Positions 28,210 to 64,000 of a stretch of DNA of 64,000 nt are shown one piece after another (position 1 is the stretch's first letter; each line of letters opens with the position of its first letter). This DNA is from a virus (lineage: Duplodnaviria > Caudoviricetes). The notes under the pieces are model-generated. The model was not told where the DNA came from. It saw only the letters and a list, made by a program, of their open reading frames with translations, and searched no databases. The DNA is taken from IMG/VR virus record IMGVR_UViG_3300029267_004155; one strand, 5' to 3'. A program made the translations under genes and the position numbers.

Positions 28210-28400
28210 GCGACTCTGTGGAGGTGACTTGTGAAGGCGAAGACCTGGAGCAAGAAGTTGAGCGGCGAGAGGATCAGGGGCGCGCTGTGCGATGTGGTCG
28301 AGGCGTTCAGGAGCCATGTCGGCCGGGCGTGCGAAGGGATGACCTTGCCCGTCAGGCAATCCGGGAGTGTGACGTGACAGAGGAAATGGAGGATGGGCAG

Positions 28401-28901
28401 ATGGGACAGAAGCAGGCCATGTATTTCGCGGGCATTCCGGTTCCTCCGGACGTCGAGCTGTTGCTCGACAAGGTGGATGTGTCGGAGGGGAACCGAATCC
28501 CGTATCTGGAGATAGAGAGGATGCTGGGGGTTCGACGTGATAGCCATCGGTGGGGAACCGTCGTCTCCGGGTGGCGGAAGCGCCTGGAGGCGGAGCGGGT
28601 GGTGCAGTTGATATGCGATAGGGGGAAGGCTTTCGTGGTGGCGAACGACAGCGAGCGTGTCGTCGTCAGCAACAGCCACATGAGCAGGAGTGTCAACTCG
28701 GCACGTCGCGCCCTTGAGATAGCGCTGAGGACGCCGGTGTCCAAGCTGGACGCGAGTGACAGGATCAAGCGCAAGCACCTTGTCAGGTTGGCGACGAAGA
28801 TAGCGCTCCTGGAGGCGAGGGAGGGTGCCAGGCTCCGCAGGAAGCTGGCTTCGGCGAATGGTCGGAAGGGGCTTCCGCCGGCTGGTGGCGGGAAGAAATG
28901 A
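28401..28901 (+). CDS. Hypothetical protein, copy A2
   Basis: Paralogue of 26581-27084. Confidence 0.75.
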   Translation: MGQKQAMYFAGIPVPPDVELLLDKVDVSEGNRIPYLEIERMLGVRRDSHRWGTVVSGWRKRLEAERVVQLICDRGKAFVVANDSERVVVSNSHMSRSVNSARRALEIALRTPVSKLDASDRIKRKHLVRLATKIALLEAREGARLRRKLASANGRKGLPPAGGGKK

Positions 28902-28922
28902 GAAAAATAATTCGCGGGACGT

Positions 28923-28952
28923 GTGGAAAACTTCGCTCTTTTGGCAATATGG
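28923..28952 (+). promoter_or_regulatory. Conserved motif, copy 5
   Basis: GTGGAAAACttcgctcttttGGCAATATGG. Confidence 0.8.
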
Positions 28953-28959
28953 GGTAGAA

Positions 28960-29013
28960 CAAGGCAGACAAGGCAGACAAGGCAGACAAGGCAGACAGGG
29001 CAGACAAAGGAGA
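28960..29013 (+). repeat. 9-bp tandem repeat CAAGGCAGA (4 perfect + 2 variant) in 5' leader
   Basis: Read directly; last unit forms the RBS. Confidence 0.9.
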
Positions 29014-29019
29014 AGGACG

Positions 29020-30069
29020 ATGCACGTAAGGGACTTGGCACCCGGTGAGACGTTGGTGGACGCGTTTGGAGAGCCGATCCAGATGTCGTGCGGCGGGGAG
29101 TGGCTCCGCGTTGACGCGCTGTCGGTGTATAAAAGCGCCGTTCGGTTCAGGATCGTGGAGCAGAAGCTGCGCGGGGAGAATTTCGCGTGGACTCGGCCTG
29201 AGACTCCGAGGTGCTTCAGCGTTCCCGAGGCGCGGATGGTGCTCATCTCGGATGACAGGATCGGTTTCTCCACGTCCGATTTGGAGTGCAACTTGTTCGT
29301 GCGGGGCTCGGAGCGGGGTGCGGATGGCACGAGCTGCAAGTGCGGGGTGCTCCAGTGGGGGCGCATCTGCACGGCCGTTGAGAGCTACAATGAGGAGATG
29401 GGGCGGAACGTCGGGGGCGTGGGGGCTTCCCTGGAGGAGTCGGCGCCTTTGGTTCCCGTTCCCGCCTCCAGTGAGCCTGGGGCTGAAAGGTGGTCGTGCG
29501 GCGGGGAGTGGCTCGGGCTGAAGGCGATGGCGATAGAGAAGGGCCGAGTTCGGTTCAGGATCGTGGAGCAGAAGCTGCGCGGGGAGAATTTCGCGTGGAC
29601 TCGGCCCGAGACTCCGAGGTGCTTCAGCGTTCCCGAGGCGGGGGTGGCCTTGGTTTCGAGTACCAAGCCGAAGTGGAAGGGGTCTCCTGTCCAGAGTACC
29701 CTGTTCGTGCGGGGCTCGGACGAGAAGGGTGACGACATCATTGCCAACTGCGGGGTGCTCCAGTGGGGGCGCATCTGCAAGGCCGTCGACCTCTACAACG
29801 AGGAGATGGGGGAGAATGTCGGGGCTTCGCTGGCGTCCGTGGGCGTCGAGGCCGACGCGTCGTGGTCCGAGAAGAACGCGGAGGTGGCCGTTCCGAAGGC
29901 TCCGGCGGCAAGTGAGGGCGTGAAGGCGCCAGAGGTGGTTCCCGAGGCGTCCGCTGAGGATGTCCGGTTGGCGCCGGGGTCCGAGGAGGGGGTGGCTGCG
30001 ATCCTGCGGCTGGGCGGCAAGGTTGTCTATGTGGCGGCCGGGGCGCATGTCACGATCAACATCGGGTGA
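29020..30069 (+). CDS. Protein with two internal repeats, copy B2
   Basis: Paralogue of 27187-28209 with near-identical C-terminus. Confidence 0.8.
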   Translation: MHVRDLAPGETLVDAFGEPIQMSCGGEWLRVDALSVYKSAVRFRIVEQKLRGENFAWTRPETPRCFSVPEARMVLISDDRIGFSTSDLECNLFVRGSERGADGTSCKCGVLQWGRICTAVESYNEEMGRNVGGVGASLEESAPLVPVPASSEPGAERWSCGGEWLGLKAMAIEKGRVRFRIVEQKLRGENFAWTRPETPRCFSVPEAGVALVSSTKPKWKGSPVQSTLFVRGSDEKGDDIIANCGVLQWGRICKAVDLYNEEMGENVGASLASVGVEADASWSEKNAEVAVPKAPAASEGVKAPEVVPEASAEDVRLAPGSEEGVAAILRLGGKVVYVAAGAHVTINIG

Positions 30070-39174: not shown

Positions 39175-40290
39175 ATGGCGACGGTGACGTGCTACCGGGT
39201 CGAGAGGGACGTGCACGCCTCCCCGTTGGGGGGCATGCTGAGGAAGGGGACCGGCCTGGAGGTCGGTGCCGACTTCGTGAGGGTCGGCGGCCGGGAGATC
39301 GGAGGCGAGCAGGCGGCCTTGTTCGTGGGGAGGCTCCTCGCGAAGACCGACTTCCTGAAGGAGGTGGAGAGGCTGGACGACACGACCCTGGAGGCCGTCT
39401 CCGGGACAAGCGCCGTGTGGCCCGTCCTGGGGTGCCTGAGGGCGGCCGAGAGGTTCGTCGGGGCCGGGACCGGGGCCTGGCTGCCCTCCGACGACAAGCA
39501 GAGGGAGTTCATGGACATCTTCTCCGGGCATATCCCGACCGTGGACGTCCTTGAGGAGCGGGTCGGGTGCCTGGAGAGCCGGGCCGACTCTGACATCGCC
39601 CCGCTCAACCGGTGGCTCAGGGAGCGCGGCTTCACCATCGAGTTGACGGTCGACCCGGGGTCCGAGGGCTTCGCGGTCGCGTCGATCCTGGACGTGCTGT
39701 GCGAGTGGCTGGAGAGGGGGACCCGGAGGACCATCGAGAAGGCCGGGGCCTCCTACGACGCCGTGAGGCTGGATGAGGGTGTGAGCCTGGTCCAGCATCC
39801 GGACCTGCACGACCATCCCGTCGTCCGGATCGCGGCCAAGGGTGGCTACCGCGTCTGCATGACGGTGGCGTCGGGCATGCCGCCGGGGGACTTCGGACTC
39901 CACTCGAAGGTGAGGAGCCTCCGGTTCGCGGACGCCCCGGACTACCGCTACGAGGGCGTCGTCTTCCCGATGGTCTCCTATGACCGGCACGAGGACATCA
40001 GTTTCCTGTGCGGCCTGGTGGTCAGGTCCGGCGGGAAGGGCTGGCACGTGGCCGAGGCGGTTCAGCAGACGAGGTTCCGGATGAACGAGACGGGCGCCAG
40101 GGCCGAGAGCGCGGCGGCCATGAGCTTCAGGTGCTCCGCCGCTGGTGCCGCCCGTCCCCCGTACGTCCTGGACAGGCCCTTCATCCTGTGGATCGAGAGG
40201 GAGGACTTCCCGATCCCGCTGTTCACGGCGGTCTTCGCCGAGGACTCCTGGAAGGACCCGGGCAATCTGGACGACGTGAAGGTGGGGTGA
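39175..40290 (+). CDS. Serpin-like protein (C-terminal two-thirds)
   Basis: QQTRFRMNETGARAESAAAM (s5A/hinge), LDRPFILWI, PLF (serpin signature region). Confidence 0.72.
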   Translation: MATVTCYRVERDVHASPLGGMLRKGTGLEVGADFVRVGGREIGGEQAALFVGRLLAKTDFLKEVERLDDTTLEAVSGTSAVWPVLGCLRAAERFVGAGTGAWLPSDDKQREFMDIFSGHIPTVDVLEERVGCLESRADSDIAPLNRWLRERGFTIELTVDPGSEGFAVASILDVLCEWLERGTRRTIEKAGASYDAVRLDEGVSLVQHPDLHDHPVVRIAAKGGYRVCMTVASGMPPGDFGLHSKVRSLRFADAPDYRYEGVVFPMVSYDRHEDISFLCGLVVRSGGKGWHVAEAVQQTRFRMNETGARAESAAAMSFRCSAAGAARPPYVLDRPFILWIEREDFPIPLFTAVFAEDSWKDPGNLDDVKVG

Positions 40291-49375: not shown

Positions 49376-50001
49376 TGCCGGCTGTCAACCATCCCATGCA
49401 CGTGGGGATGCTCCGAAGGTGGAAGGACGACCCCAGGGGCGACCTGTACGGCTGCCAGTGGGGCGACCCGGAGGAGGGCCACGAGATCGTGACCCTCGCC
49501 AGGGACCACTACCTGCTGCCCTTGCTGGGGCCGTCCTCCACGGTGGTCGAGATAGGGCCGGGAGGGGGCAGGTGGACCAGGTACATGACGGGATGCAGGA
49601 AGGTCTACGCCGTCGATGTCTCCCGTGAGATGCTCGACGAGCTGGCGCGCTCGTTCCGGCATCCGTTCCTGGTGCCCGTCCTGGGTGGCGGCACGGACCT
49701 GGCCGGCGTGCCTGACGGCTGCGCCGACCTGGTCTGGTCGTATGACGTCTTCGTCCATCTGGAGCTGGACGCGATACGGGCCTACCTGAAGGAGATGTGG
49801 AGGGTGCTGAGGCGGGGCGGCCAGGGCGTCATCCACTACTCCGACAAGACCAAGCCGAATGGTTTGGCCAACACCGGCTTCTCCGACAACGACCCGGCGA
49901 GGATGAGGGCCGCGGTCGGGGATGCCGGCTTCCGGATCGTGGGCGAGAACGTGACCTGGAACCCGATGGGCGCGATAATCTGGTTCGAGAGGCCGGGATG
50001 A
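49372..50001 (+). CDS. Class I SAM-dependent methyltransferase
   Basis: VEIGPGGGRW, VDVS, SYDVFVHL, RVLRRGG. Confidence 0.88.
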   Translation: MMPAVNHPMHVGMLRRWKDDPRGDLYGCQWGDPEEGHEIVTLARDHYLLPLLGPSSTVVEIGPGGGRWTRYMTGCRKVYAVDVSREMLDELARSFRHPFLVPVLGGGTDLAGVPDGCADLVWSYDVFVHLELDAIRAYLKEMWRVLRRGGQGVIHYSDKTKPNGLANTGFSDNDPARMRAAVGDAGFRIVGENVTWNPMGAIIWFERPG

Positions 50002-51035
50002 CGGTCGACACGCCAACCGGGCCGGTCGAGGTGCCGGCCAGGGCCATGAGGGCCGTCTGGCAGGGCGACGGCGTCGTGTTCGAGTGCGACGTGTGCAAGA
50101 CGGAGGGGTGGAGCTACTCGAAGAGCAAGACGGACTCGGTCAGGCGGATGGTGGCCCTGGAGGGTTGGCGGTGGGGCTTGAGGGACGTGTACGAGACTCA
50201 TGGGTGGACCTGCGGGGTCTGCTCGGCGCAGCTGACGCAGACGGACGTGAGGGCCGAAGAAGAGGAGATGGCCGATGGGTAGGAAGATGGAGATGGGGTG
50301 GCAGTTCGCGGCCGTGATGATCGTCTTCGTCATGCTGTACGGGGTCGTTAGGGCCCGGATGGACAGGGCTCGGGGCATTACGCCGCTGGGCGAGGAGCCG
50401 AAGGCTGCGGAGGTGGCTGGCGAGATCGAGAAGGAGCCGAATACGCCGTTTCTGATGCCGGTTAGGTTCGAGGTCGTGTCGAACCAGGACATACGGGCCT
50501 GGAGGAGCTTGCCGGTCGGCATCCGGGCCGTCGTGCTGCGGGACGTGGGGACCGGAGTGGAGTACCTCGTCCTGGAGGGCGGTTCGGGCGTCGCCGCAAT
50601 CGAGATCGCCGAAGGAGGAAGATGATGAGCAAGATTAAAGCATTGGAAAGGCGCGTCACGCATCTTGAGAGGCGGATCGCCCACCTGGCCGATGCCAACG
50701 GTCTGAGGACGTTGGAGGAGACCGTCGGATACGAGCCTCCTGAGGAGCCCCAGGGGAGCGAGCCGGTCGAGAAGGTGGAGTCGTACCCGCTCGGCATGTG
50801 CCGGCTCGTCGACGTCACGCTGCCGTCGGGCGAGCGGTTCGGGAATGGCCCTGTGAGCGTCGAGGACAGCCTCTCGGAGGCTCTCGGCCTGCTGGAGCGG
50901 TGTCGGGTCCTCATGGGCCACTCGCCGCCTCTCAGCGACGACGTGAGGGCGTTCCTGGAGGGGCAGGGGGTCCCGGACCATGAGAGCGCCGAGTGGCAGG
51001 AGATGACGACGGGGCACAAGGAGGTCGAGGTATGA
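49998..51035 (+). other. Hypothetical genes 49998-50282, 50275-50625 (N-terminal TM helix), 50622-51035
   Basis: Tiling, RBSs. Confidence 0.55.
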
Positions 51036-51057
51036 AGGCCGAGCTGGAGGAGAGTTG

Positions 51058-51354
51058 ATGGCGGGCAAGGGTGACACGCCGAGGCCGGTGAACAGGGCCA
51101 GGTACGACGAGGGCTATGAGCGGATATTCGGAACCGACGACGAGGTGGCCCGGAGGCGGCGGGCCTCCATGGGGAAGGTTCGAGGTGAGAGGGGGTCTGC
51201 TGTCGTGATGGACGATTTCGCCTTCGTCGACGGGTCGATGGCCGCGGACATGGAGGAGATCGAGCTGGCAGTCGCCAAGGGGTTGCGGCTGCCGATTCAG
51301 TTCCTGGTTGGCGACGACGGGGATGTGAGGACGAGCAAGGAGGAGAAGTTATGA
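51058..51354 (+). CDS. Small mosaic protein (possible terminase- and portal-like segments)
   Basis: GGAGG RBS; KVRGERG..MDDFAFVD; GLRLPIQFL. Confidence 0.6.
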   Translation: MAGKGDTPRPVNRARYDEGYERIFGTDDEVARRRRASMGKVRGERGSAVVMDDFAFVDGSMAADMEEIELAVAKGLRLPIQFLVGDDGDVRTSKEEKL

Positions 51355-53301
51355 AGGTCGGGAACTGGGTCGCGTTGAAGCAGGGCCTTGTCGCGGGAAG
51401 TTCTCCGGGAGCCGAGATCGTGGTGGCCAGGGGCTGCGTCGGGACGGTGATTGATACGGACGCCGGGGTTTTCGGTGGTCCTCCCAAGGTGAGGGTAGCC
51501 TTCGAGGTGGCCAGACAGGCCTTGATCGTGAGGGCCTGGGTCGTGGTTGAGGATGACTTTCTGAAGGACGGAGGGCCGAATGACGCCTTCGACTCGAAGG
51601 CTCGCTACGACAACGGGATGACGTACAGAGAGATGCTGGAGGGCTAGGGGATGGGCGTGTTGTCTGATCTGCTGGTGAGGCACGGGATCGTCCAGGAGGT
51701 GGCGGTCGAGGACCCCGAGGGCTACGACGGAGGTAGGAAAGAGGAGGCCATCGCCAAGGTCGAGGCAGAGCTTGGCGACATGAACGGCAACGCCGTGACC
51801 CTCCATCGCCAGGCGAAGGAGCAGAAGGAGGTTCTGGAGCGGGAGGTCCACCACCTGTCCGGGGCCGTCCTGACGGATTGAGGATGGTCGATGGCGGTGA
51901 TGGCGACGGACGAGGAGATGGCCATGAGATTGGCGAGGACAACATGGCGAAGGAGAAGGTCATGAGGGAGAGCAATGCTGGCAACGCGGCGAGGGCGGCC
52001 TCGCTGGGTGACAGGGTCGTGGAGATGCTTGTGGAGGCCGACGCGACCCGGGAGGAGTCGGGCGCCAGGGTGGCCGAGGCCATGAAGGGGGTCCTGGAGG
52101 GAATCAGGGCGTTCCTGGGGAGCACCTCGCTGGAAGTCGCGCTCGTGAGCGCGACCTGCTGTGACAGGCAGCGCTACGAGATCGTCCTGAGCGGGGAGTC
52201 CCTGGCGTCCAGGCTCTCGCTGGTCCGCGTCAGCATCGACCAGGACGGCGTCGTGATGCTCGGCTACGGCACTCTGATGTCCGGCATGGGCTGGAACAGG
52301 GTCTGGGGCGAGCTGGACGATTCCCTGGCGGACGCGATCCCGGTGGCCGACATCGTCAAGATCAAGAGGGAGTGGGTTCGCTGGAGCGCCCCGGCCACGC
52401 CGAGGGAGCCGGTGACGTGGCCGGTCAGGAGCGTCGAGTTCATGGGGGAGGTGGCTCCGGGGACGTGGAAGATGAGGATAGACGTGGCGGTCGACGGGGA
52501 GGTGAGGGAGGGGGACGTCCTCTCCGTCGTGGCCGGCAACCGCTGGAGGGTCGAGTCCAGCCTGGGCGACGACGTCTTCACCTGCGTGGGGCCCGACCCG
52601 GACCTGCCGCCCCGGGGCGCGCTGGCCGACGGCGACGTCGACGTCGAGGTCGTCAGGTGGTGGGCCAGGCAGATGTCGATGCTCGCCGACTCCTTCGACG
52701 ACAGGCGCAGGAGGAGGAAGTGCCTCAAGGCGGCCAGGCTCATGTTCGAGGTGACGGGGGGACGGGAATGACGAAGGTCGAGATCAGGGACGCGACCCAG
52801 TTCTGCGAGCTCGTCCGGCTGCTGAGGGCCATGGCGGAGCGGGCGGGCCTCGTCGTGCGGCCGTTCGAGACGCCGGCCGAGGGCGTCGTCGGCTACTCGG
52901 TCGTGGCCGACTCGAAGGACGAGCCGCTGCCGGAGGTGGGCGTCTCCTTCAGGGTGGACCGTGAGCTGGATGTCGAGGTGGTCTCCATGGAGCACGCCGG
53001 CCACCTGCCGCCTGGCGAGGTGCTGGTCATGGGCGAGAACGGCCGGCGGAGCGGCCTGGAGAAGCTGATGGAATGCCTGAGGGGGGCCGAGTGGGTGAGG
53101 GCCGACGACGCGAGGAGGCTGCTGGTCGGCTTCGCGAGGCCGGACGGGGACAGGATCGCCGTCAGGCAGTTCAGGTTGATGGAGCTGAAGATGGGTCTGG
53201 CCAGCGAGGGAGTGGGCGCGGAGGTGAACAGGCTGCGGGGCGAGAAGGATGGCGACGGCTTCAGGAAGATGCTCTCGGCCATGGCCGGGGAGGAGCTGTG
53301 A
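51351..53301 (+). other. Hypothetical genes 51351-51647, 51651-51881, 51944-52771, 52768-53301
   Basis: Tiling, RBSs. Confidence 0.55.
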
Positions 53302-53302
53302 C

Positions 53303-53539
53303 ATGGCCGACGGCAGGTCGTTTCTCGCCAGGAGGATGGCCGACGAGGTCGAGTCGAGAGGCGACGCCGTCGTCTGCCGATGCGGGAGGTGCGGCTGGCA
53401 GGGCTACCTGGAGGAGGCCCATGTCGAGCTGGACGAGCAGGTCTTCACGGGATGGCGCTGCCCGAGGTGCTCGGGGCGGGTCGTCCTGGAGAGGGTGCTC
53501 GGAGGCGACGTCCTGGCGGCCGGGGAGGGGACGAGATGA
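53303..53539 (+). CDS. CxxCGWxG Zn-ribbon protein with acidic tag
   Basis: CGRCGWQG..CPRC..GDVLAAGE. Confidence 0.7.
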   Translation: MADGRSFLARRMADEVESRGDAVVCRCGRCGWQGYLEEAHVELDEQVFTGWRCPRCSGRVVLERVLGGDVLAAGEGTR

Positions 53540-53901
53540 CGGTCTTCAAGTGCGGGGCCTGCGGGTGGCGGGGAGACACGAACGACGTCGGGTGGGACCT
53601 GGCCAGGGCGATGCGGGCGTGCGGCGCCTGCGGCTCGACGAGCCTGCGGGTCGTGGCCAGGCTGCCGAGCGGGGACGTGATGGCCGAGGATGAGAACATG
53701 AGGGCGCACGAGGCCGCGGCCAGGGCGGCCTGCGGAACTCCCGACGGGGACGTGATGGGCGTGGACGAGGAAATGAGGATGGGCCTTGCCATTGAGGAGT
53801 CGAGTCGTGGTAGAGATGACAGTAACCCAACACTTGAGGCAACATCTGCTGACCCGTCCCCGAGGAGGGGTGAGGAACGCCCTCCGTCTGCCTCCACTTG
53901 A
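53536..53901 (+). CDS. CxxCGWxG protein interrupted at about 53784 by an insertion
   Basis: CGACGWRG; GDVMAEDE; continuation resumes after second repeat copy. Confidence 0.6.
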   Translation: MTVFKCGACGWRGDTNDVGWDLARAMRACGACGSTSLRVVARLPSGDVMAEDENMRAHEAAARAACGTPDGDVMGVDEEMRMGLAIEESSRGRDDSNPTLEATSADPSPRRGEERPPSAST

Positions 53902-54235
53902 AGATATGCGGGAAAGTCAATGGAGCTCTGAGTTTGAGCAGTTTCAGAGGAACCGGCTCATTTTCGGAGCTCATCGGTATGGAATGGAGTTTGGAAATGC
54001 TTCATATGACTACGTCGGTGCTCTGAGGACTCGCCTTCGTGAGTATGAGGAGACTGGAAATCTCGAGTTCCTTGTTGACGTGGCCAACTACGCGATGCTC
54101 GAGTTCGTGGTTGGAAGGAGACGAGGGAAAGAGATGAGGCCCGTGGATGGAGGAACTCATTGTGGGAAGAAGAACGTCAGGTGAGTTGGAACTCCCGACG
54201 AGGAGATGGGCGTGGACGAGGAGATGAGGATGGGC
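53734..54235 (+). repeat. ~50-bp direct repeats (53734-53784, 54188-54235) flanking the insert
   Basis: GGAACTCCCGACG..GATGGGCGTGGACGAGGA.ATGAGGATGGGC occurs twice. Confidence 0.85.
53816..54184 (+). CDS. Lower-GC inserted phage gene
   Basis: NRL..G..RYG..Y.ETGN.E.LVD.ANY.MLEF; flanked by direct repeats. Confidence 0.7.
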   Translation: MTVTQHLRQHLLTRPRGGVRNALRLPPLEDMRESQWSSEFEQFQRNRLIFGAHRYGMEFGNASYDYVGALRTRLREYEETGNLEFLVDVANYAMLEFVVGRRRGKEMRPVDGGTHCGKKNVR

Positions 54236-54798
54236 AGGGAGTGGGTGCCCGCATGCCACGACTGCGGATGGTGGGGGGTCGACGACGACCTGGCCGGCGA
54301 CAACAACGGGAGCCGGACCCTCTGCCCGAGATGCCTGGGCGGGAACGTCGGGAGGCTGTGGGTCGAGAAGGGCGTCGTCGAGGCGGTGAGCGAGGCCCCG
54401 GACGGCTTCCGCAAGGGCTCCGTCCACGTCCTGGAGAGGACGACGGAGAGGGACGAGCCGCTGAGAAGGGCCTCCGACAACGTTCTCCATGGGGCCGTTC
54501 ACGCAATGGACGAGGAGGCGGACGAGAGCGAAAGGCTGAACAAGGCGTTCGCGGCCGTGGAGGCCCACGACGTCGACGTCAGGTCGGTGATGATCTTCGG
54601 AACCGACGACGAGCGCGACAAGGTCCTTGGCGACCTGAGGGACTTCGGGGGCCGGATGGGGACGTGGCCGTCGAGATAGCCAAGTGGAGAAGGGTCGTGA
54701 CGGGCGACGTCGAGGACGAGAGGATGTACGTCCTGGAGGAGAAGGTCGCCAAGGAGTGGTTCGAGAACGGAGAGGTCGTGGCGTATGATGAGGTGTGA
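54206..54798 (+). pseudogene. Zn ribbon + capsid-like segment; frameshift near 54667 separates tail ending GEVVAYDEV
   Basis: ORF stops at 54679; coding-like tail continues in another frame to 54798. Confidence 0.55.
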
Positions 54799-54827
54799 CG
54801 ACGAAGGCTGAGAATGGAGGACGAGGC

Positions 54828-55061
54828 ATGAGGAGGTACATGGTGACGATGGCCGAGTCGATCGCGATCTCTTACGAGACCGTGGAGGCGGACTACGTCG
54901 AGGTCGAGAATGGCTGCCTGGTCTTCTGCAGGCATGTCGATGACGAGAAGGGAAAGGACGACGTGATCCAGGCCTTCGCCAAGGGGGCGTGGGCCAGGGT
55001 CGAGGAGATCGAGAGTCGAAACGAGGAGAAGAAGGAGACGAGAGATGAAGCACGCGCATGA
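54828..55061 (+). CDS. Hypothetical protein
   Basis: VEAD..G.LVF..AF..G.W. Confidence 0.65.
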   Translation: MRRYMVTMAESIAISYETVEADYVEVENGCLVFCRHVDDEKGKDDVIQAFAKGAWARVEEIESRNEEKKETRDEARA

Positions 55062-55452
55062 GGTGACGGTGGCCCCGATCATGAACGGGGTCCTGGTGAG
55101 GGCCGGATGCAAGACGCTGTTCGCCAAGCCGGAGGACCTGAAGGGCCTCGAGGGCTACTTCGCCAAGGGCGACGCGGCCAAGGTGCCGGCCAGGTTCAAG
55201 CGGTGGGTCAGGGACGGCGAGGCCTTCAGGGGCCCCGAGGGGCCTTGCGCCGAAGAGACGGAGAGCTGCCTCGACATCAAGGAGGGCATGTCGAGGCCGT
55301 CCTTCCTGGACAAGAGCGGAGCCGTGGTCGTCCACAGGATCACCAACGGCTTCGTGGTGGAGTGCGACAGGCAGTGCTGGGGCGTCGAGCCGGGCAAGGA
55401 CGAGAAGCCCGAGGATACCGTTTACGGGCTCCTGGCAGGCGTGCTGTCATGA
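55045..55452 (+). CDS. Paralogue of 46027-46566
   Basis: Shared motifs. Confidence 0.7.
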   Translation: MKHAHEVTVAPIMNGVLVRAGCKTLFAKPEDLKGLEGYFAKGDAAKVPARFKRWVRDGEAFRGPEGPCAEETESCLDIKEGMSRPSFLDKSGAVVVHRITNGFVVECDRQCWGVEPGKDEKPEDTVYGLLAGVLS

Positions 55453-55908
55453 GGTGGAGGGTCATGGCCCCGCTCAGGTTCGTCGGCCTGGCGGTCCGCC
55501 TCAAGGCCGAGGTCCTCGGCCGGGCCGGATGGCGGCGGGTGACGTGCCTTTGGCGCGGCCGGAGGCCGATCGGGCAGGCGGGGCCGGAGGCCGATCGGGC
55601 TCGGCAAGCCCAGGCGCGTTGAGGTTCCGCTGTTCGAGACCGTGGCCTGCCCGGCCATCCGGCTCGATGACGTCAAGGCCAGGCGCCTCGTCCTGTTCGG
55701 CGACGATTCGGACATAGTCTCGCTGGTCAGATGCTCCGAGTGCGGCTGGCTGGGCGAGTCGTGGAGGCTGAGGAGGCTCCCGTTGCGGGCGTGTCCCCGG
55801 AAGCGATGCCCGAGATGCGCGACGGACGAGGTCGGGGCGCTGGTGGCCATGGACCTGGGCGGCACCGACGTGGGCGTCTGGGAGGAGCGGAAGGAGGAGA
55901 CGACATGA
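55449..55908 (+). pseudogene. Capsid-like segment + Zn-ribbon gene frameshifted by a 25-nt duplication
   Basis: GGCCGGAGGCCGATCGGGC at 55557 and 55582; removing one unit restores the frame. Confidence 0.65.
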
Positions 55909-56336
55909 GCAGGCCGCCGCCATGCGACCGGGAGGTCTTCAGGAAGGGCCGGAGCATCATGGCCTGCGACACGGGCACCGCCGAATGCCGGGCGGAGGAC
56001 TTCGAGGCCTGGATCGTCAGCGTCAGGAGAAGGCTGCCGAAGGGCAGCGGGATCGACTGGCACTACTTCGGGGGCGTGGCCAACGTCCTGGCCCTCGGGG
56101 ACCGTGAGGCCGTTCTGGACGCCGTCGGGGGCATGATGTCCTCCTGCCCGGCCAGCGTCATGCGATGGGTGGGGGAGGGCGAGATCGGGCCGCACCGGTC
56201 CGGGGTCACCCCGGCCCCGCAGGGGGCCATGGGCGCGAGCTACGGGCCGGACGGCGGGGAGTTCCTCCTGGAGGGAAGCCGGGCCCCGGAGCCGGGCGAC
56301 GTCGTGGCGGCCGACGACGAGAGGGCCGGGCCGTGA
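55905..56336 (+). CDS. Hypothetical protein with acidic tag
   Basis: DWHYFGG; ends PGDVVAADDE. Confidence 0.7.
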   Translation: MSRPPPCDREVFRKGRSIMACDTGTAECRAEDFEAWIVSVRRRLPKGSGIDWHYFGGVANVLALGDREAVLDAVGGMMSSCPASVMRWVGEGEIGPHRSGVTPAPQGAMGASYGPDGGEFLLEGSRAPEPGDVVAADDERAGP

Positions 56337-57067
56337 TCCTGGCCAGATGCGCCAAGTGCGGGTGGAGGGGGGTCGACGAGCATTGCTCGAAGGAGCTGGT
56401 CGAGTGCCCGAGATGCGGGAGGCCCGTCGTCGGGCTCTCGATCATGTTCGAGCCGGACGTCGTGGCGACGGACGAGACGAAGGACGAGGAGAGGGAGCGG
56501 GACATGAGAGACGGAGGGGACGAGGAGATCGAGGCGGTCTCCATGACGAGGTGCTCCAGATGCAACCACGAGGCCAGCTCGAAGGAGTGGGAAGGGAGCA
56601 AATGCCCGGAGTGCGGCTCCGGGTGCGCGTTGCAGTGGATAGTGGACCACCCCGGGGAGGTCGAGGTGTTCGAGGACGGGGAGGTGGAGGTCTACGAGGA
56701 CGGGGGAGATGAGGTGTGGGGTGAGCGGATCGAGGCCAGAGGCTGGGTCACCATCTGCAACGGGTGCGGGTGGCAGGGGGACTTCGAGAGGGACATGAGG
56801 GAGAGGGGGCCGAGGGGCTGGGAGTGCCCGGAGTGCGGATGGGGAGTCGGGGAGGCCGTCAGGGTGGACGACGGCGAGGTCTGGGCCAGGAAGGAGAGGG
56901 CGGAGGACGCCATGCCGGACGTCGAGGCGTTCCCTGCCGGAGGGACGACCCGGGACCCCTCCTGGGCCGACGTGATGGGGGCCTACGACAGGCTCCTCGA
57001 AGGGAGGGCGAAGGACAGGATGCTCGACGGGGCCGTCCTCGCCGAGCGGGAGAGGAGGGAGCCGTGA
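56333..57067 (+). CDS. Triple Zn-ribbon protein with repeated acidic tags
   Basis: Three CxxC..CPxC pairs each followed by a [DE]V-x-[AV]-x-[DE] segment. Confidence 0.7.
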   Translation: MILARCAKCGWRGVDEHCSKELVECPRCGRPVVGLSIMFEPDVVATDETKDEERERDMRDGGDEEIEAVSMTRCSRCNHEASSKEWEGSKCPECGSGCALQWIVDHPGEVEVFEDGEVEVYEDGGDEVWGERIEARGWVTICNGCGWQGDFERDMRERGPRGWECPECGWGVGEAVRVDDGEVWARKERAEDAMPDVEAFPAGGTTRDPSWADVMGAYDRLLEGRAKDRMLDGAVLAERERREP

Positions 57068-57327
57068 GGCACTACAGGTGCAGATGCGGGAACAGGAAGA
57101 TGTGGGGCTCGATGCCGCCAAGCCCGTGCCAGGGCTGCCCGAAGTGCGGCACCACCATGGCCCATGATCCGGCGAGATGCAAAACGCCGGAGCCGCACGA
57201 CTGGACCACCGAGGAGACCGTCGGGGATGGCGACACCGTCAGGAGAACGACGCGCTGCCGAAGGTGTCATGAGAGGATGGACGACTCGACGGACGTGGTG
57301 GCCGAGGACGAGAAGGTCGAGCCATGA
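57064..57327 (+). CDS. Cys-rich protein with acidic tag
   Basis: Ends DVVAEDEKV. Confidence 0.65.
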   Translation: MRHYRCRCGNRKMWGSMPPSPCQGCPKCGTTMAHDPARCKTPEPHDWTTEETVGDGDTVRRTTRCRRCHERMDDSTDVVAEDEKVEP

Positions 57328-57408
57328 GACAAGTCGGAGTCCAGGGGCCGCAGGGCTGGCCCGAGGAGGCGACGGGGTCGTGGTCGCCTGCTTCGAGGAG
57401 GTGACGAC

Positions 57409-57591
57409 ATGACTGAGGAGTACGTGGTGCTGACGGTCAGTCGCTGCCCGAGATGCGGGTGGGAGCTGTCCAGGCACGTGGTGGAGATGCGGCTTGGGGA
57501 CGTCGTGCTGTTTGACGAGAGGGACGTGGGGGCGCTGGACGAGCAGGGCGACGTCCAGGTGGCGGACGACGAGAGGAGGGAGCCGTGCTGA
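57409..57591 (+). CDS. Small protein with three tag copies
   Basis: GDVVLFDE, DVGALDE, GDVQVADDE. Confidence 0.6.
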   Translation: MTEEYVVLTVSRCPRCGWELSRHVVEMRLGDVVLFDERDVGALDEQGDVQVADDERREPC

Positions 57592-57947
57592 AGACGAACA
57601 AGTGGAGCCTGAACGTGGCCTTCTCCCACGTGGAGAGCATGGACTACTTTGTGGTGGGCGTCCTGGCGAGGGAGCCTCTGGAGTGCGAGGACGGACTCTG
57701 GGAGTCATTCCCGCCGGTGGGGGTGAGCAAGGACGTCGCCAGGTCCGACGACAGGGTGGCCATGATCCTGGTGGGCGTGAGGGACCGCAGCTCCATCGCC
57801 GTGGGCTTCGCTCTCCAGGAGGACGGAGACTGGGAGTGCCTGATGACCGACGAGGAGAAGGACGAGCACCTGCGAGCCTTGAACGCCAAGGCGGAGGCGA
57901 GGATGAAGGCCCCGCCCGACGAGCCGAGGGAGGGGCCGGGGTCATGA
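57585..57947 (+). CDS. Protein with capsid-like segment
   Basis: SLNVAFSHVESMD. Confidence 0.6.
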   Translation: MLKTNKWSLNVAFSHVESMDYFVVGVLAREPLECEDGLWESFPPVGVSKDVARSDDRVAMILVGVRDRSSIAVGFALQEDGDWECLMTDEEKDEHLRALNAKAEARMKAPPDEPREGPGS

Positions 57948-58315
57948 TCCTCGCGAGATGCACCGAATGCGGCTGGCACGGAGTCGACGAGCAGGTCGAC
58001 CAGGTCCTGGTCGCGGCCCCGGACGGAAGCAGGGGGCGACCGTGCCCCGAGTGCGGGCTGCCGAATGTCGCGCTCTCGATCCAGTTCGATGACGAGGGGG
58101 TCGTCGTCGCCACGACCGAGGAGCTGCTGGTGATCGACGGCCTGCCCGGGGTCTCCATCTGCGAGGCCTGCGGATGGGAGGGGGCTCCGTGGGAGCACGA
58201 CCAGTCGACCTGGCCGGCCCGGTGCCCGGCGTGCCACAGGAAGGCGATTGAGAGGACCATCCCGGGGCTCAGGCCCGGGGAGGTCCAGGTTCTCAGGGAG
58301 GAGGCGATGCCATGA
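57944..58315 (+). CDS. Double CxxCGWxG Zn-ribbon protein
   Basis: MILARCTECGW resembles 56333; ends PGEVQVLREE. Confidence 0.7.
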   Translation: MILARCTECGWHGVDEQVDQVLVAAPDGSRGRPCPECGLPNVALSIQFDDEGVVVATTEELLVIDGLPGVSICEACGWEGAPWEHDQSTWPARCPACHRKAIERTIPGLRPGEVQVLREEAMP

Positions 58316-58672
58316 GCAAGATCATGAGGCCGACCTTCCCGCCGATCATGACCTTGCTGACATGCCACAGCCGCGGATGGTCGGGGAATACGGACGAGCA
58401 GGGGACCTTCAAGGATGAAGCGGGAGATAGATGGATGTGCTGTCCGGAATGTAAAAGCGTGACGCTCGGGAGCGAGGCCGTCGAGACGGGCTTCGTCGGA
58501 GTCAGGGACGAGACCATGATGAAGAGACTAACGGCATGGAGATGCAAGAACTGCGGCCGGGAAGGAACCCCCGATCATCTGCCCGAGATGCCAAGGGGAG
58601 AGCTTTGAGAGGGTCGTGGCGAAGGAGGGGGACGTCTGGGCCACTGACGAGAAGATCGGGAGGGCGACGTGA
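58312..58672 (+). pseudogene. Decayed double Zn-ribbon gene
   Basis: CHSRGW (lost Cys); frameshift near 58570; tail CPRC..EGDVWATDEK in another frame. Confidence 0.55.
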
Positions 58673-58942
58673 CAGGAAGGTTCCATAGGAGGTGCCACGA
58701 GCGCGGATGGGACTGCGACGACGCGGACCATGACGAGATCAACGTCCCGGGGCCGTGCCCGAGATGCGGCAAGCTGCTCAGGAGGGGGAGTCCGGAAGGG
58801 CACCGAGAGGACCTTGCGGAACCGGACGAGCCACGGAAGAAGAAGCGAAGCCTACGGCTTCGAGGCGACGACCGGACGACGCCACGAATCGGAAAGGGCC
58901 ATCCTCAGGGACGGCCTCCCGAAGGCCGGAAGCCAGCGAAAT

Positions 58943-59150
58943 GTCGGAGAAAAAAGCGATGCGGCTCTTTCTGGAAATCCACGGATGGCATGGAACGTGC
59001 CCGGGCGTCGTCACGGCAGGACCACCGTCCCGGTGAGGCGTCAAGGAAAAACCGATGGGACTTTTCCTGGAAATTCACGGGCTTGAAAAAACGTCGGGAA
59101 AAAACCGATGCGATTCTTTCTGGAAATTCACGGATGGCATGGAACCTGCC
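58943..59150. repeat. Three imperfect direct repeats (58943-59001, 59040-59080, 59093-59150)
   Basis: AAAAA.CGATG.G..(C)TT..CTGGAAAT.CACGG core. Confidence 0.8.
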
Positions 59151-59311
59151 GTGACGGGGGCCGCGATCGAAGACGATCGAAGACGATCGTTTCGGGAGTG
59201 GGGGGTCCCGTGACCTGGGCTGTGTGCAATGGGCGCACACGTACAGGGGCGCGCATTTATCGTATGGTAGGGGCGTGGACAATTTCCGCATGGCGGGTCT
59301 GGAGGTGAGCG

Positions 59312-59608
59312 ATGAGGTGGTGTCCGGAATGTGGTGGCTCCCGGTTCGAGGGGCGTCGTTGGGAGATAAGGACGGTGGTGGTGGACGGTGACGGCGTTTC
59401 CCTGCCCGGGGATGGCGGCGTCGCGGGCTGGGAGCCGGAGACCCTGACGGTCGGCGTGCACTGGGGCCCGTACGTCTGCCTGGGGTGTGGGCGGAAGACG
59501 GCCGAGCTGGAAGACCTGCCGGAGACGGGCGACGTGCTGGCCGAGGGGGAGGCCGGAGGCCGAAGGGGGCCGGTCCGGAGGCCCCGGAGGCCTCCCGACG
59601 TCGCATAA
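59312..59608 (+). CDS. Zn-ribbon protein with acidic tag
   Basis: CPEC..CLGC..GDVLAEGE; GGAGG RBS. Confidence 0.65.
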   Translation: MRWCPECGGSRFEGRRWEIRTVVVDGDGVSLPGDGGVAGWEPETLTVGVHWGPYVCLGCGRKTAELEDLPETGDVLAEGEAGGRRGPVRRPRRPPDVA

Positions 59609-59626
59609 TATCATATTATGTTTAAT
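59598..59626 (+). other. dif-like XerC/XerD recombination site
   Basis: ACGTCGCATAA-TATCATA-TTATGTTTAAT vs E. coli dif GGTGCGCATAA-TGTATA-TTATGTTAAAT. Confidence 0.75.
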
Positions 59627-60170
59627 TCACGACGGAACTAATTGGACGTTTCGCGTCGCAAACGCGCCTGCCGCAGGTACTTGCGGCTACGAGAAAAAGA
59701 GGGAAATTCGGCATGCAACCTGCTATGGGTTATCAGGGGGGAATCGAGCCTTTTTTTCGCGCTGCTACAAAGAAGGTCGTCGATTGTAACGGTGGACGCC
59801 TGGTGGTGGTGGGCGGGGAGCTGGGCGAGTCCGCGGAGGTGGTGGTCGACGCGTCGGTGGAGGAGCTGAGGGCCGTCAGGGCCGGGGAGGTGGTGGCGGG
59901 TTCGGAGGCCATGGCGCCTGCCGGGGTCCGGGGAGGTGGTCGGCCCGGAGGTCCTGGGGCCTGCGGGGGCCTGCCCGGAGCCCGTCTCAACCGCGTCTCA
60001 ACCCGGCGGGGGCCTCCCGGGAAATAGGACGGCTATCGATCCGGCCTTCCGGGATCGGACCCCGGGGCGCTGTCGCGCGTCGGCGATTTTTTCGGAAATC
60101 CGAAAATCGGGAATTGGCCTTTTCGGGGCTTTCACATGCGCTCGCGTGCGCGTGTGGGGGAGGTGGTCTG

Positions 60171-62250
60171 ATGGGTGAGGTGGTCGAGGGCTACGTGGTC
60201 CACTGGTGCCCGTCCTGTGGACGCCTGTGGGTATGGGAGAGCCGGCGGCTGCCTGACGAGATGGTGGTGTTCGACGTGGTCGAGAGGTGTGACGACGGGG
60301 GTTTCTGCTGGCATGATCGTGACGAGGTGGTTTTGCGGTTCTCTCCTGGGGAGGTCGGGGTTTGGCGCGAGGATGCTGGGTGGCCGGCATCCACAGGGAG
60401 CCGGGGCTGGAGGCGCATGGCGGTCTCCGGTGTCCCGTCTGCGACTTCCGGTTGGCGGGTGGCCACGTCGGGGGTGCCCGGGGTGCGGGGCGAGGCCCTT
60501 TCCCCTGTCGGGACGGGAGGAGTCGGGGGAGGTCGCCTGCTCGGGGAGGTTGAGTTTCTGGGAGGTGGTGGCTGTCTCGGAGGGGGTTGGGGGCGTATAG
60601 TGTCTTGACGGCCGGCGTCTTCATGTGGATGACGGGTTCGTGTCCGACTCGCCGGGCTTGCCGGCCGCGAAGCTGTTGGTCCGTGCGGGTGCTCCTGAGG
60701 GGGCGACGGCGGGCGTCCCCGGTAACGGGCCCTTCCCGCCATTCCTGGAGGTTCGGGTGAGGCTGGTGGGTCACGACGAGAGTTGGTGGGCGTGTCTGTC
60801 GTGCGGTCACGTGGTCCACCGGGTCAGGAGGGGCGCTGTCCGGGACGGCTGCTCCTGCGGGGCTTGCGGGAAGGCGGCCTGGTGGGAGCGGTTCGTGATC
60901 GGCGAGGTGGTCGCCGTCCGCGAGGAGGTGTTCGACGTTCGCGAGGAGGTGTTCGATGGAGAATCTGGTTGACATCTTGACGCGCGGCCTTGCCGAGGTT
61001 CGGGCGGTCCGGGCCTCGGGGGCGGTTCGCGAGTGGGTCTCCGGGGACGTGTCGGTCTCCCTTCTGGAGGTTCCGGACGGGCGGTCCCGCGCCGTGGCGC
61101 GCTCCCCCGATGGCCGGGACGTGCTCGTCCTTCTCTTCGAGGACGCCGGGGCTCTTCGCGAGCTGGTCGAGGGCGTGGTCCGGGAGGCCGGGGCCCTTCG
61201 CGAGCTGGTCGGGGCCGGGGGCGGCACGAGGCTGATGGTCGCCGTCCGGGGGTCTCTGACGGGGCTGGCCCTGGTTGGCGACGGCTGGCGGTGGGCGGCG
61301 GTCGACGGCCCTTGACGGGGCCGTTCCTGCCGCGGGTCGGCGCTTTTCCCGGAGCCGTCCGGCGGGATCGGGCTTTTCACCGTGGGCGAGGAGGCTGGTG
61401 ATGGTTTCGGAGTGCGTGGTCTGGCGTTGCGGGCGTTGCGGGTGGGAGGGCGTGGGTGACGGGAGCTGTCCTGGTTGCGACAGGTCCGGGGCCTTCTGGA
61501 CCGACGACGGCCTCATGCGTCCTCGCGAGGCGGGGTCCTTCGAGGACGGCGAGGTCCTGGCGAGGCACGAGGAGCTGGGGCGGCTCGCCGGATGGATTGT
61601 CTTCAGCTGCCCGGGTTGCGGCTGGGTTGGCCGCGGGGCGCCCACGGAGGTGCTTCCTGACGGCTCCTGGGGGTCCGGGAGGGTTTGCCCCGGGTGTTCG
61701 AGGCTCGGCGTGTCCGAAGAGGGTTACGTGTCCGCGGACGGCCTTGACGTGACGGCGGCGGCGGAGGTGGTTCGGACGAGGTTTCGGGGGCGTGGTGGTC
61801 TGAGAAGAGGAGGTTGTTGATGAGGCGGACGGGTAGGAGCCTGATGGCGTGCGCGTTCTGCGGCGAGCTTCTTCGCGGGAAGGAGCTTGCTCCTCCTGGC
61901 CGGGTGGCCTGGAGGTGCGCGGTGGGGCGTCCGGAGATGGGCGACGGGAGGGAGCTGTGGAGGCCCGCGGCCGACTACCACGGCCTGCGGCTTCCGGCCA
62001 GGTGCTGGCTCCGGAGGGGGGAGGTGGTCTGTGCCGAGGTGTCTTGAGGCGTGCTCCGGGTGCGGGTTCCTGAGCGGGGCGGCGACGGCCTTGGGCGAGA
62101 CGGTGCCTGCTCGCCGTGGTGGTGGACGAGCGCGGCCCGCGGGGGGAGCCGCGGGCTCGTGGTGGGCCGTTCGAGGGCACGGAGCTGCCGGCAGCTCCGT
62201 GCCCGTACTCGACGGGCGAGGTCGGGGCCTTGGACGAGGAGGTTGGATGA
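60171..62250 (+). other. Small, partly decayed Cys-rich genes (60171-60608, 60625-60972, 60956-61315, 61401-61820, 61820-62047, frameshifted about 62030-62250)
   Basis: RBSs, CxxC motifs, acidic tags. Confidence 0.5.
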
Positions 62251-62516
62251 GCGTCACGAAGGAGGGGATCATAGCGAAGGCCCTGTCGACTCCGGAGGGT
62301 CGCCAGGAGCTGGCCCGGGCGATGTGGCCGTACGCCTGCGACGTCTGCGGGCGCTTCCCGATGAACTGGAAGGGTCTCGGGGTGAGGCCGGTGGAGACGT
62401 GCCCGGCGTGTGGCGCCGTCTGGTTCGACGCCGAGAGGAAGTGGGTGCCCGACGGCGACGTTGGGGCTTCGGACGAGGTTTCGGGGGCGTGGTGGTCGGA
62501 GAAGAGGAGGTGCGAC
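62247..62516 (+). CDS. Capsid-N-terminus-like helix + Zn ribbon + tag; no stop, runs in frame into the sulfotransferase
   Basis: GAGGAGG RBS; KEGIIAKALSTPEGRQELARAM. Confidence 0.6.
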
Positions 62517-63194
62517 GTGATAATAGGTGAGAACTTCGCGTGGGGCCACATTCCGAGGACCGGCGGCACCTTGACGGCCTGCCGGTTCGTCGAGGCTGCC
62601 AGGCTGTGCGGCGCGGCCTTGTCGGTGGACGGCGACCTGTCTCATTCCAAGCACGACCCCTTCCCCGCCCGGGCCGTGGAGGGCAAGGTCCTGGTCCTGA
62701 GCGTGCGCAGGCTGCCGTCCCTCTACCTGTCCTGGCTCGTGATGATGTCTGGCAGGCTGCGCCCCGGCGATCCCGTCTGCGGGGACTACGGGGGCGGGGT
62801 GTGGCCCTGCTACGTGCCTCTGCCGACGCCCACCAGGGGCCAGGTGCTCGGGGTCGAGGACTACCGCGTGCGCGACTTCGTGGACGTCTACGGTCCCCTG
62901 CGGTGCTTCCCGGACGCCTATCTCAGGTCCTTCACGGACGACGGGAGGCTGAAGGTGGACCACCACATCCGGCTGGAGTTCCTCGACCGGGATTTCCGGC
63001 GGGTGGCCGTGGCGCTGGGGATGGACTACGACGAGGACGCGTTCCGGCCCGTGGCGCCCGGGGCCAAGGTCGTCTTCTCGTACGACCACGACGTCGCGGG
63101 GTATTTCTCGGAGGGCGACCTGGAGGTCCTGTACGCCAACAACCCCCTGTGGGCCGCGATGGAGGCCGAGGTCTATGGCGGGGTGCCCGGATGA
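62517..63194 (+). CDS. Sulfotransferase family 2-like protein
   Basis: HIPRTGGT PAPS-binding loop, VR..S.Y.SW, IRLE.L..DF; own GAGGAGG RBS. Confidence 0.75.
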   Translation: MIIGENFAWGHIPRTGGTLTACRFVEAARLCGAALSVDGDLSHSKHDPFPARAVEGKVLVLSVRRLPSLYLSWLVMMSGRLRPGDPVCGDYGGGVWPCYVPLPTPTRGQVLGVEDYRVRDFVDVYGPLRCFPDAYLRSFTDDGRLKVDHHIRLEFLDRDFRRVAVALGMDYDEDAFRPVAPGAKVVFSYDHDVAGYFSEGDLEVLYANNPLWAAMEAEVYGGVPG

Positions 63195-63412
63195 GAAGGT
63201 GTCTCGACGCGTGTAGGGGCTGTCGGTTCTGGCGGGCGCGGGTGCGGCTCGGCGCCGACGACCTCTACAGGTGCGTGTGTTTCGTCGTTTCCTTCGGTGG
63301 CGGGGTGATGGCGGAGGACTGGGCCTCTCGGGGCGTCTACGAGGGTCGCCATCTCCCGGCCGGGTGCCTGGCCCTCGGCGATGTTGCGACCGTGGACGAG
63401 GAGCTGTCATGA
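63191..63412 (+). CDS. Cys-rich protein with acidic tag
   Basis: Ends GDVATVDEEL. Confidence 0.6.
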   Translation: MRRCLDACRGCRFWRARVRLGADDLYRCVCFVVSFGGGVMAEDWASRGVYEGRHLPAGCLALGDVATVDEELS

Positions 63413-63681
63413 GCGACGCGGGCCGCTTGACCGCCGACGACCTGAGCGTGGCCTTCGAGAAGATCGAGAGGACGGACGCTCAGGCCGGGGCCGTGACGGT
63501 GGGCGTCGAGGCCTGGGAGGAGCTGGGGAGGATGGGGTCCGACGCCCTGGTGCCCGCGACGGAGGAGGAGCTGTTCAGGAACGGCTTCGTCGGGTCGATC
63601 TGGGGCGCCAACCTGCATGTCTCGTGCCCTCCTGGCGAGGTGATGGCGAGTGACGAGGTGATCGAGAGGCGTATGGTGTGA
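63409..63681 (+). CDS. 90-aa protein resembling an isolated major capsid protein A-domain segment
   Basis: LT.DDL..AFEKIE..D..AT.EEL..G.VGSIWGANLHVS. Confidence 0.65.
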   Translation: MSDAGRLTADDLSVAFEKIERTDAQAGAVTVGVEAWEELGRMGSDALVPATEEELFRNGFVGSIWGANLHVSCPPGEVMASDEVIERRMV

Positions 63682-63748
63682 CGACGGACGCGGATGAGAG
63701 GAACGGGATCGTGGCGGTCGACGGGACGAAGGACGGGACCGGGGTGGC

Positions 63749-63988
63749 ATGATGGTTTTCTCGAAGGTGTTCGGGACGATGGCGTCGGGAAGGAGGCTGT
63801 CCGCCGACTGGGCACCGGCGGTCGCGGCCTGCGGTCTTTGTCATGCCTCTGTCCTGAGGGGCGACGGCGAGGGCAACTTCGCGGCTCTGGGCGTCTGTCC
63901 GAGGTGCGGGGCCGTCCGCGTCGGCGTGACGGGGAAGTGGGTCCTGGGCGAGGTGGTGGTGAGAGAGGAGGAGAAAGCGGATGGATGA
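63749..63988 (+). CDS. Zn-ribbon protein with acidic tag
   Basis: CGLC..CPRC..GEVVVREEE. Confidence 0.6.
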   Translation: MMVFSKVFGTMASGRRLSADWAPAVAACGLCHASVLRGDGEGNFAALGVCPRCGAVRVGVTGKWVLGEVVVREEEKADG

Positions 63989-64000
63989 GAAGGCGTCCGG

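Follow-up and report, generated by a model that had tools for sequence, protein, structure and literature searches.

In a 64,000-nucleotide (nt) stretch of a metagenomic phage genome (Caudoviricetes; IMG/VR record IMGVR_UViG_3300029267_004155), hereafter the window, a dense array of small genes repeatedly encodes the acidic motif G-[DE]-V-x-[AV]-x-[DE]-E. The motif is mostly the flexible tail of one small predicted zinc-binding domain copied about 20 times, and it recurs mainly because the modules share descent, not through independent acquisition of a tag. The best overall explanation, which we regard as probable, is that the motif forms the tail of an expanded zinc-ribbon module of shared descent; a docking role of the tail is plausible. 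The family has not been described before, though its expansion is of an already known sort.

The window corresponds to positions 129,509–193,508 of a 298,395-bp metagenomic contig, has 65% GC with a strongly positive GC skew, and encodes every gene on the + strand. Five other assemblies hold near-identical copies of it (>99.4% identity), and no cultured phage similar to it was found in DNA-level comparison. The data covered the 64-kb window and 7 kb more of the 298-kb genome. All long contigs recovered belonged to the same phage (>99.4% identity).

Enrichment of the motif

All 26 copies of the motif listed in a first-pass annotation were found, each in the coding frame of a + strand open reading frame (ORF). 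An additional copy at 50241 brings the total to 27, and further degenerate copies lie at 54371, 58097, 58489, and 61740. A loose pattern of the motif occurred 19 times in the right arm of the window (4,399 amino acids [aa] encoded after 49.9 kb), compared to a mean of 0.45 and a maximum of 5 in within-protein shuffles, and not once in the left arm (16,033 aa in the 95 proteins encoded before 49.9 kb), where 0.89 copies were expected. The strict pattern occurred six times against 0.04 expected. With a position matrix at a threshold of 10, 23 matches were counted in the right arm (0.4 expected) and one internal match in the left arm (0.7 expected), although this count is partly circular, the matrix being derived from the same copies. 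Among the + strand pattern matches, 19 of 20 lay in the called frame, the exception being a frameshifted module, and the − strand gave two matches. The motif lies far above the expectation from composition and ribosome-binding sites, and the remark in the first-pass annotation that it is rare in the first 50 kb holds, the distribution being uneven along the window and confined to the right arm. The array, which had been taken to start at 51,058, in fact begins at about 50.0 kb; sister contigs extend it by about 3.5 kb beyond the window, where three further tail-like ends occur. The position of the motif had been given as usually C-terminal, which is true of 14 of the 27 copies (at most seven residues before the stop codon) and not of the others.

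The zinc-ribbon module and its tail

About 20 of the 27 motif copies lie 11–15 residues past the second CxxC of a zinc-ribbon module of about 50 residues, with the consensus CxxCGWxG ... CPxCG ... G-[DE]-V-x-[AV]-x-[DE]-E. The earlier view that the motif sits on non-homologous bodies is thus wrong for these copies, which belong to one module family. In each module, the first knuckle (CxxCGWxG) and the second (CPxCG) are separated by a variable loop; one more strand, a short and often Pro-containing linker, and the tail follow. In an alignment of 14 modules, the four Cys residues and the tail Val were invariant, the final Glu was nearly invariant, and GW followed the first knuckle. The module profile detected about 20 modules within 50–64 kb, comprising the 14 training modules, four clear non-training modules (57406, 58348, 58562, and 61596), and weaker ones, and nothing below E 0.01 in the first 50 kb. 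Pairs of CxxC motifs numbered 17 in the 39 right-arm genes compared to 12 in the 95 left-arm genes. The modules are distributed over about 15–20 neighbouring genes, one to three per gene (three in one gene and two in several), each with its own tail, and the ribbons of the family are near-neutral.

The AlphaFold model of a single module, based on the module alignment, had a mean predicted local distance difference test (pLDDT) score of 85.8, with five short strands around the knuckles within residues 2–43; the tail was coil outside the ribbon, with pLDDT falling to 58. In the model of the three-module protein, the ribbons scored about 80 and every tail lay in coil segments below 50. By these predictions, the tail is an acidic, flexible peptide that lies outside the ribbon, as would be expected of a docking peptide. 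The modules have the four putative ligand Cys residues in two CxxC motifs and, in the predictions, the beta-hairpin ribbons of a two-knuckle rubredoxin-like zinc ribbon. Generic ribbons and rubredoxins were the nearest structures in Foldseek searches of the PDB and BFVD, none of them significant, and structure matches in the ESM Atlas were small proteins without names.

Judged by profile scores, the family is outside every curated family. Searches of Pfam, NCBIfam, and PHROGs gave only sub-threshold or weak matches (HypA zinc domain, FmdB, double zinc ribbon, and a Lar-like family); the best score for a curated family was that of HypA (E 3.5e-5, 24 bits against a cut-off of 28.9), and the best score of a relative was 30.6 bits against 146. 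Scans of IMG/VR and metagenomes for relatives of the family found none, and word-based protein searches returned the phage's own proteins only. Most matches from a profile search of 1.8 billion proteins were long zinc-ribbon proteins with multiple repeats, which matched the ribbon core and not the tail.

Constraint on the tail

The Gly, Val, and Ala codons of the tail follow genome usage, with no extra constraint on third positions. The synonymous variation reported in the first-pass annotation is accordingly borne out, pointing to selection on the protein. Its caveat that the terminal acidic pair can be produced by the next gene's ribosome-binding site is also correct. In 7 of the 11 terminal copies, the motif ends 5–11 nt before the next start codon, and the acidic pair (GAnGAG) therefore doubles as the Shine–Dalgarno site of the next gene; furthermore, 22 of the 78 coupled genes of the left arm (28%) end in an acidic pair. 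The core of the motif is not explained in this way, as had also been argued: [DE]-V-x-[AV] was found in none of these 78 genes, compared to 9 of the 29 coupled genes of the right arm, 15 of which end in an acidic pair. Ten internal copies without a downstream start codon still have the acidic end, and Asp and Glu alternate at motif position 2, though of the two residues Glu alone has a codon that resembles a ribosome-binding site.

A sister sample yielded a contig of 950 bp (49.6% GC) that encodes three consecutive ribbon genes with five tails in other codons, two of the tails lying far from any gene end. A relative with 55% GC likewise has the tail. Selection on the protein thus appears to maintain the tail, as shown indirectly by comparison of sequences, and the 950-bp contig, from a distant relative with about 50% GC, provides the strongest evidence.

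Tails on bodies without a recognisable ribbon

Bodies of other kinds, or degenerate ones, carry four to seven of the 27 copies. Carriers without a ribbon are a 143-aa protein (55905–56336), a 90-aa protein (63409–63681), the far C-terminus of a 197-aa protein (to 54798), and a doubtful 44-aa ORF; a Cys-rich paralogue pair (ending at 62047 and 63412) and a 119-aa protein past the window also lack a recognisable ribbon. All ribbon-free carriers lie within the array, and each is immediately followed by a coupled gene. This pattern would be expected from in-frame deletions or fusions in which the ribosome-binding site downstream was retained. As a separate observation, the 90-aa protein shows a weak match (E 3.4e-4) to the middle of the major-head-protein PHROG family phrog_2522 and none in Pfam.

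Turnover of the array

The array is turning over: it shows slippage, junction duplications, copies that are frameshifted or decayed, and a few fusions through which non-ribbon bodies carry the tail. Tandem repeats of 24 and 21 nt produce the adjacent tails at 56654/56678 and after 60901, respectively. The tandem multiplication inside genes that had been taken as a sign of protein-level selection is thus present, though in these two cases it consists of recent DNA slippage repeats. Direct repeats at 53734–53784 and 54188–54235 (90% identical) flank a segment of about 450 bp with an unrelated 92-aa gene, and the 51-nt gene-start duplicate beside this gene creates one motif copy; this arrangement suggests that recombination at a gene junction brought in the segment as a cassette. 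A 46-nt stretch shared by 61753–61814 and 62450–62511 is read in different frames by two paralogues, being coding sequence in one and a frameshifted C-terminus with the next gene's ribosome-binding site in the other.

Compared to the sister assemblies, the window has a 1-nt (54658) and an 11-nt (55575) indel, each splitting a family gene; the sister assemblies encode fused proteins of 197 aa and 151–168 aa at these sites. The 11 nt absent at 55575 fall in a 25-nt tandem repeat (55552–55600). These indels may be genuine variation in the population or errors of assembly. In all six assemblies, the module at 58534–58672 is split at a run of five C near 58567, and the stop codon of its second frame overlaps the GTG start at 58669, as in intact array genes, so that it may be either a fixed pseudogene or a programmed +1 frameshift. 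Coding scores are low at 58.6–60.6 kb. At 60001–64000, the AT skew is negative (−0.35 and −0.14) and GC reaches 70%, coinciding with low coding scores and decayed family members.

Features of the array are listed in Table 1.

Table 1. Zinc-ribbon modules, tails, and related features of the small-gene array in the window
Feature	Coordinates	Strand	Evidence
Array of about 40 small genes in the same orientation, most of them translationally coupled	49998..64000	+	Own gene calls and database calls on near-identical contigs
Module 1, long inter-knuckle loop; tail 50241–50267, 4 aa before stop	50073..50267	+	Profile E 1.2e-10
Module 2, in 78-aa protein; tail 53504–53527, C-terminal	53369..53527	+	Profile E 2.5e-15; AlphaFold pLDDT 85.8, tail coil
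Module 3; tail 53671–53694, internal	53536..53694	+	Profile E 6e-18
Tail-like copy (53746–53772) in 51-nt duplicate of the ribosome-binding-site/start region of the gene at 54206	53734..53784	+	Direct repeat, 90% identical to 54188–54235
Module 4; degenerate tail 54371–54394	54239..54394	+	Profile E 6e-15
Tail at far C-terminus of module-4 protein (197 aa in sister assemblies; split in window by 1-nt deletion at 54658)	54769..54792	+	Sister assemblies
Module 5; tail 55864–55887, C-terminal	55720..55887	+	Profile E 5e-14
Tail on 143-aa protein without zinc ribbon (55905–56336)	56295..56321	+	Motif position; homologues other than itself not found
Module 6, first of three in 244-aa protein; tail 56453–56476	56336..56476	+	Profile E 2.9e-15; tail coil, pLDDT <50
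Module 7; two tails (56654–56677, 56678–56701) from 24-nt tandem repeat	56537..56701	+	Profile E 2.3e-13; repeat 56653–56717
Module 8; tail 56873–56896	56741..56896	+	Profile E 1.1e-15; orthologous module with same tail in 50%-GC relative
Cys-rich body unmatched by module profile; tail 57289–57312, C-terminal	57112..57312	+	
Partial module (one knuckle) with three tails: 57496–57519, 57520–57543, 57547–57573	57406..57573	+	Profile E 1.9e-7, non-training
Module 10; degenerate tail 58097–58123	57944..58123	+	Profile E 6.5e-17
Module 11; tail 58277–58303, C-terminal	58148..58303	+	Profile E 7.7e-15
Module 12, first knuckle decayed; tail 58489–58512	58348..58512	+	Profile E 3.3e-5, non-training; relative P0081 has intact knuckle
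Module 13, split over two frames at five-C run near 58567; tail 58628–58651 in second frame	58534..58651	+	Profile matches in two frames; three-frame reading
Weak module; tail 59528–59551	59471..59551	+	Profile E 0.04
Weak or decayed module; tail 60348–60374	60147..60374	+	Profile E 0.03; low coding score
Module 16; tail 60901–60927, extended by 21-nt tandem repeat	60781..60956	+	Profile E 2.2e-9; repeat 60904–60956
Module 17; tail 61548–61574, internal	61413..61574	+	Profile E 3.6e-11
Module 18; degenerate tail 61740–61766; DNA after tail is a frameshifted copy of 62450–62511	61596..61766	+	Profile E 3.8e-5
Tail on Cys-rich 75-aa protein (61820–62047), paralogue of protein ending at 63412	62018..62038	+	
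Tail in doubtful 44-aa ORF	62215..62241	+	Sister-contig gene callers picked another frame
Module 19, N-terminus of 315-aa protein; tail 62454–62477, internal	62322..62477	+	Profile E 1.2e-12
Tail on Cys-rich 56–73-aa protein, C-terminal	63377..63403	+	
Tail on 90-aa protein without zinc ribbon (63409–63681)	63634..63657	+	Weak match to major-head-protein PHROG family
Module 20; tail 63947–63973, C-terminal	63818..63973	+	Profile E 6.5e-12

Discussion

The results show that an uncultured phage with a genome of about 298 kb has expanded the module in a lineage-specific manner to about 20 copies in neighbouring coupled genes. The tail is under protein-level constraint, as the indirect evidence shows, and its terminal acidic codons overlap the ribosome-binding site of the next gene. 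Beyond this, we propose a scenario in which the variable ribbons would offer diverse binding surfaces, yielding a panel of early or accessory host-manipulating proteins. Within this scenario, we suggest tentatively that the tail may be the constant element, a peptide docking on one common partner, which it would probably bind as an added beta strand. Several points weigh against the scenario. The low pLDDT scores come from a 14-row alignment of paralogues and are weak evidence for an unstructured tail, and the conservation seen in paralogues and two short relatives could reflect a cis role such as solubility or an intramolecular contact. At least four tails lie on ribbon-free bodies, which pure module descent does not directly explain. 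The evidence, furthermore, covers about one-quarter of the genome and two tiny contigs of relatives.

The tail may alternatively be an integral, cis-acting part of the module with no common partner, as a metal-dependent last strand, an acidic solubility cap, an in-cis mask, or a self-association strand. This is rather unlikely in our estimation, but it would account for the fixed spacing from the second knuckle, for a tail Val as invariant as the zinc ligands, and for the alternating hydrophobic pattern typical of a beta strand; the sub-threshold matches to the HypA C-terminal zinc domain also include a strand past the second knuckle. However, both AlphaFold models place the tail as low-confidence coil away from the ribbon, tails occur in tandem, and at least four of the bodies that carry one have no recognisable ribbon. 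A more elaborate form of docking, in which fast-evolving ribbons grip different host or phage targets and the tail docks all of them on one partner, would treat the non-ribbon tails as genuine recruits, and the common partner could be a protease, a polymerase, or the capsid interior. We consider such an adaptor panel distinctly unlikely; if it were true, the phage would route many targets to one machine by a single peptide code.

It is improbable that the motif is a portable sorting or loading signal on unrelated proteins, comparable to T4 capsid targeting, encapsulin cargo loading, or a processing site. The 14 C-terminal copies, the predicted flexibility of the tail, and the tails on the proteins at 55905–56336 and 63409–63681, at the end of the 197-aa protein, and on the 119-aa protein past the window are what such a signal would lead one to expect, but about 20 of the 27 copies sit on one homologous module, and the non-ribbon cases, all in the array upstream of a coupled gene, would be explained by deletions or fusions. 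A general signal is also at odds with the left arm, where none of the 95 proteins matches the loose pattern and the matrix gives a single internal match. No capsid, protease, or shell gene linked to the array was seen, the motif resembles neither the T4 signal nor the hydrophobic encapsulin peptide, and nothing ties it to the capsid, encapsulin-like cargo, or processing-site roles suggested in the first-pass annotation. Prohead-protease cleavage sites are of the Ser/Ala/Gly-x-Glu type, and this candidate was dropped because Asp predominates at position 7 of the motif and the third residue before the final Glu varies. Least of all do we expect the motif to be mainly a nucleotide-level by-product, that is, a ribosome-binding or coupling signal or a recombination junction in a G-rich genome. 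The spacing of the acidic pair from the next start codon in terminal copies, the acidic-pair ends of left-arm coupled genes, and the copies generated by the 51-nt junction duplicate and slippage repeats fit such an origin. For the motif core, it is nevertheless largely refuted by the absence of Gly-acidic-Val-x-Ala/Val from the left-arm coupled genes, by third codon positions that follow genome usage, by the alternation at position 2, by the acidic ends of internal copies, and by the relative with 50% GC, which keeps the peptide in different codons.

The closest precedent for the family is the Bacillus jumbo phage G, for which Iyer et al. (2021; PMC7824862) reported a lineage-specific expansion of about 35 zinc-ribbon proteins, with suggested roles as specific transcription factors or DNA-binding proteins. 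Like phage G, the present phage has a jumbo genome with many small, paralogous zinc-ribbon genes; its 298,395-bp contig holds about 20 modules within 14 kb. The present family differs in the conserved acidic tail after each ribbon, in its multi-module genes, and in its near-neutral ribbons. A tblastn search with the three-module protein against 50,697 phage records gave no match at E up to 0.01, the phage G family included. The C(P)XCG zinc-finger micro-proteins of haloarchaea (Haloferax volcanii), according to the abstracts, are tiny, have many paralogues per genome, and are mostly of unknown function (PMC11241148; PMC10716476). By description, they are alike in having two C(P)XCG knuckles, the second knuckle of the present family being CPxCG, but they are cellular proteins of scattered genes, and no common acidic tail is reported in those abstracts.

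Two CxxC knuckles, the second being CPxCG, are also found in HypA (PF01155), FmdB/Zn_ribbon_8 (PF09723, TIGR02605), and the double zinc ribbon (PF12773). In HypA, the second knuckle is followed by a strand of alternating hydrophobic and acidic residues. The present family, however, lacks the nickel-binding N-terminal domain of HypA: the matches span profile positions 54–100 of 112, and the matched proteins, of 60–120 aa, start at the ribbon. A model for how a ribbon and an acidic tail can work together is LysW, in which the acidic C-terminal tail is a functional handle shown to a series of enzymes and ends exactly at the substrate-carrying C-terminal Glu. In the present family, by contrast, the tail is followed by 1–7 residues, and there are many internal copies. 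The LysW/ArgW amino-group carrier protein is itself a small zinc-ribbon protein (PMC12998189). A LysW-like carrier role was dropped, since the tail is not at the exact C-terminus and Pfam LysW is absent at E up to 1; in addition, the scan of the 20 larger window proteins revealed no ATP-grasp ligase.

Short peptides common to proteins with one destination are known from T4 and from encapsulins. The T4 capsid-targeting sequence is N-terminal and is removed by the prohead protease, whereas copies in the present family are C-terminal or internal. Encapsulin cargo-loading peptides are C-terminal, hydrophobic, and Gly/Ser-rich; the tail described here is acidic, has another consensus, and belongs to one domain family. 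No encapsulin shell gene was seen among the window proteins scanned, which were part of the set.

Large families of tiny paralogous proteins account for much of the coding capacity that is still unexplained in giant phages, and one of them is defined here by its profile, tail, boundaries, and decay products. The analysis separates three overlapping and potentially misleading signals: the common descent of the modules, the constraint on the protein, and the next gene's ribosome-binding site. Should the tail prove to be a docking peptide, a peptide pull-down would give a handle on the role of about 20 accessory proteins; otherwise, the family would represent an ordinary expansion.

Other features of the window

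Scans of the stretch for promoters and terminators gave none above background, and long − strand ORFs (460 and 677 aa) were ruled out as genes by codon scores. Among the products of the left 50 kb are sugar-nucleotide enzymes, glycosyl- and methyltransferases, and many proteins of unknown function. A sugar-nucleotide dehydratase/epimerase gene at 11753–13831 is apparently interrupted by an intein-like insert; the epimerase halves lie at residues 10–127 and 496–676 of the product, with a sub-threshold match to an intein splicing domain in between. Paralogous proteins of 661 and 667 aa (4117–6102 and 6968–8971) have their N-terminus in common, and a metalloprotease-like motif was detected in the product of 4117–6102, the only one of the two scanned. 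For the 371-aa protein encoded at 39175–40290, the C-terminal portion of serpins, which holds the reactive loop, was matched below threshold (E 1.3e-5; 25.1 bits, the cut-off being 27). At 26192–30069, a three-gene block is tandemly duplicated (26192–28209 and 28231–30069), the starts and ends of the proteins being near-identical.

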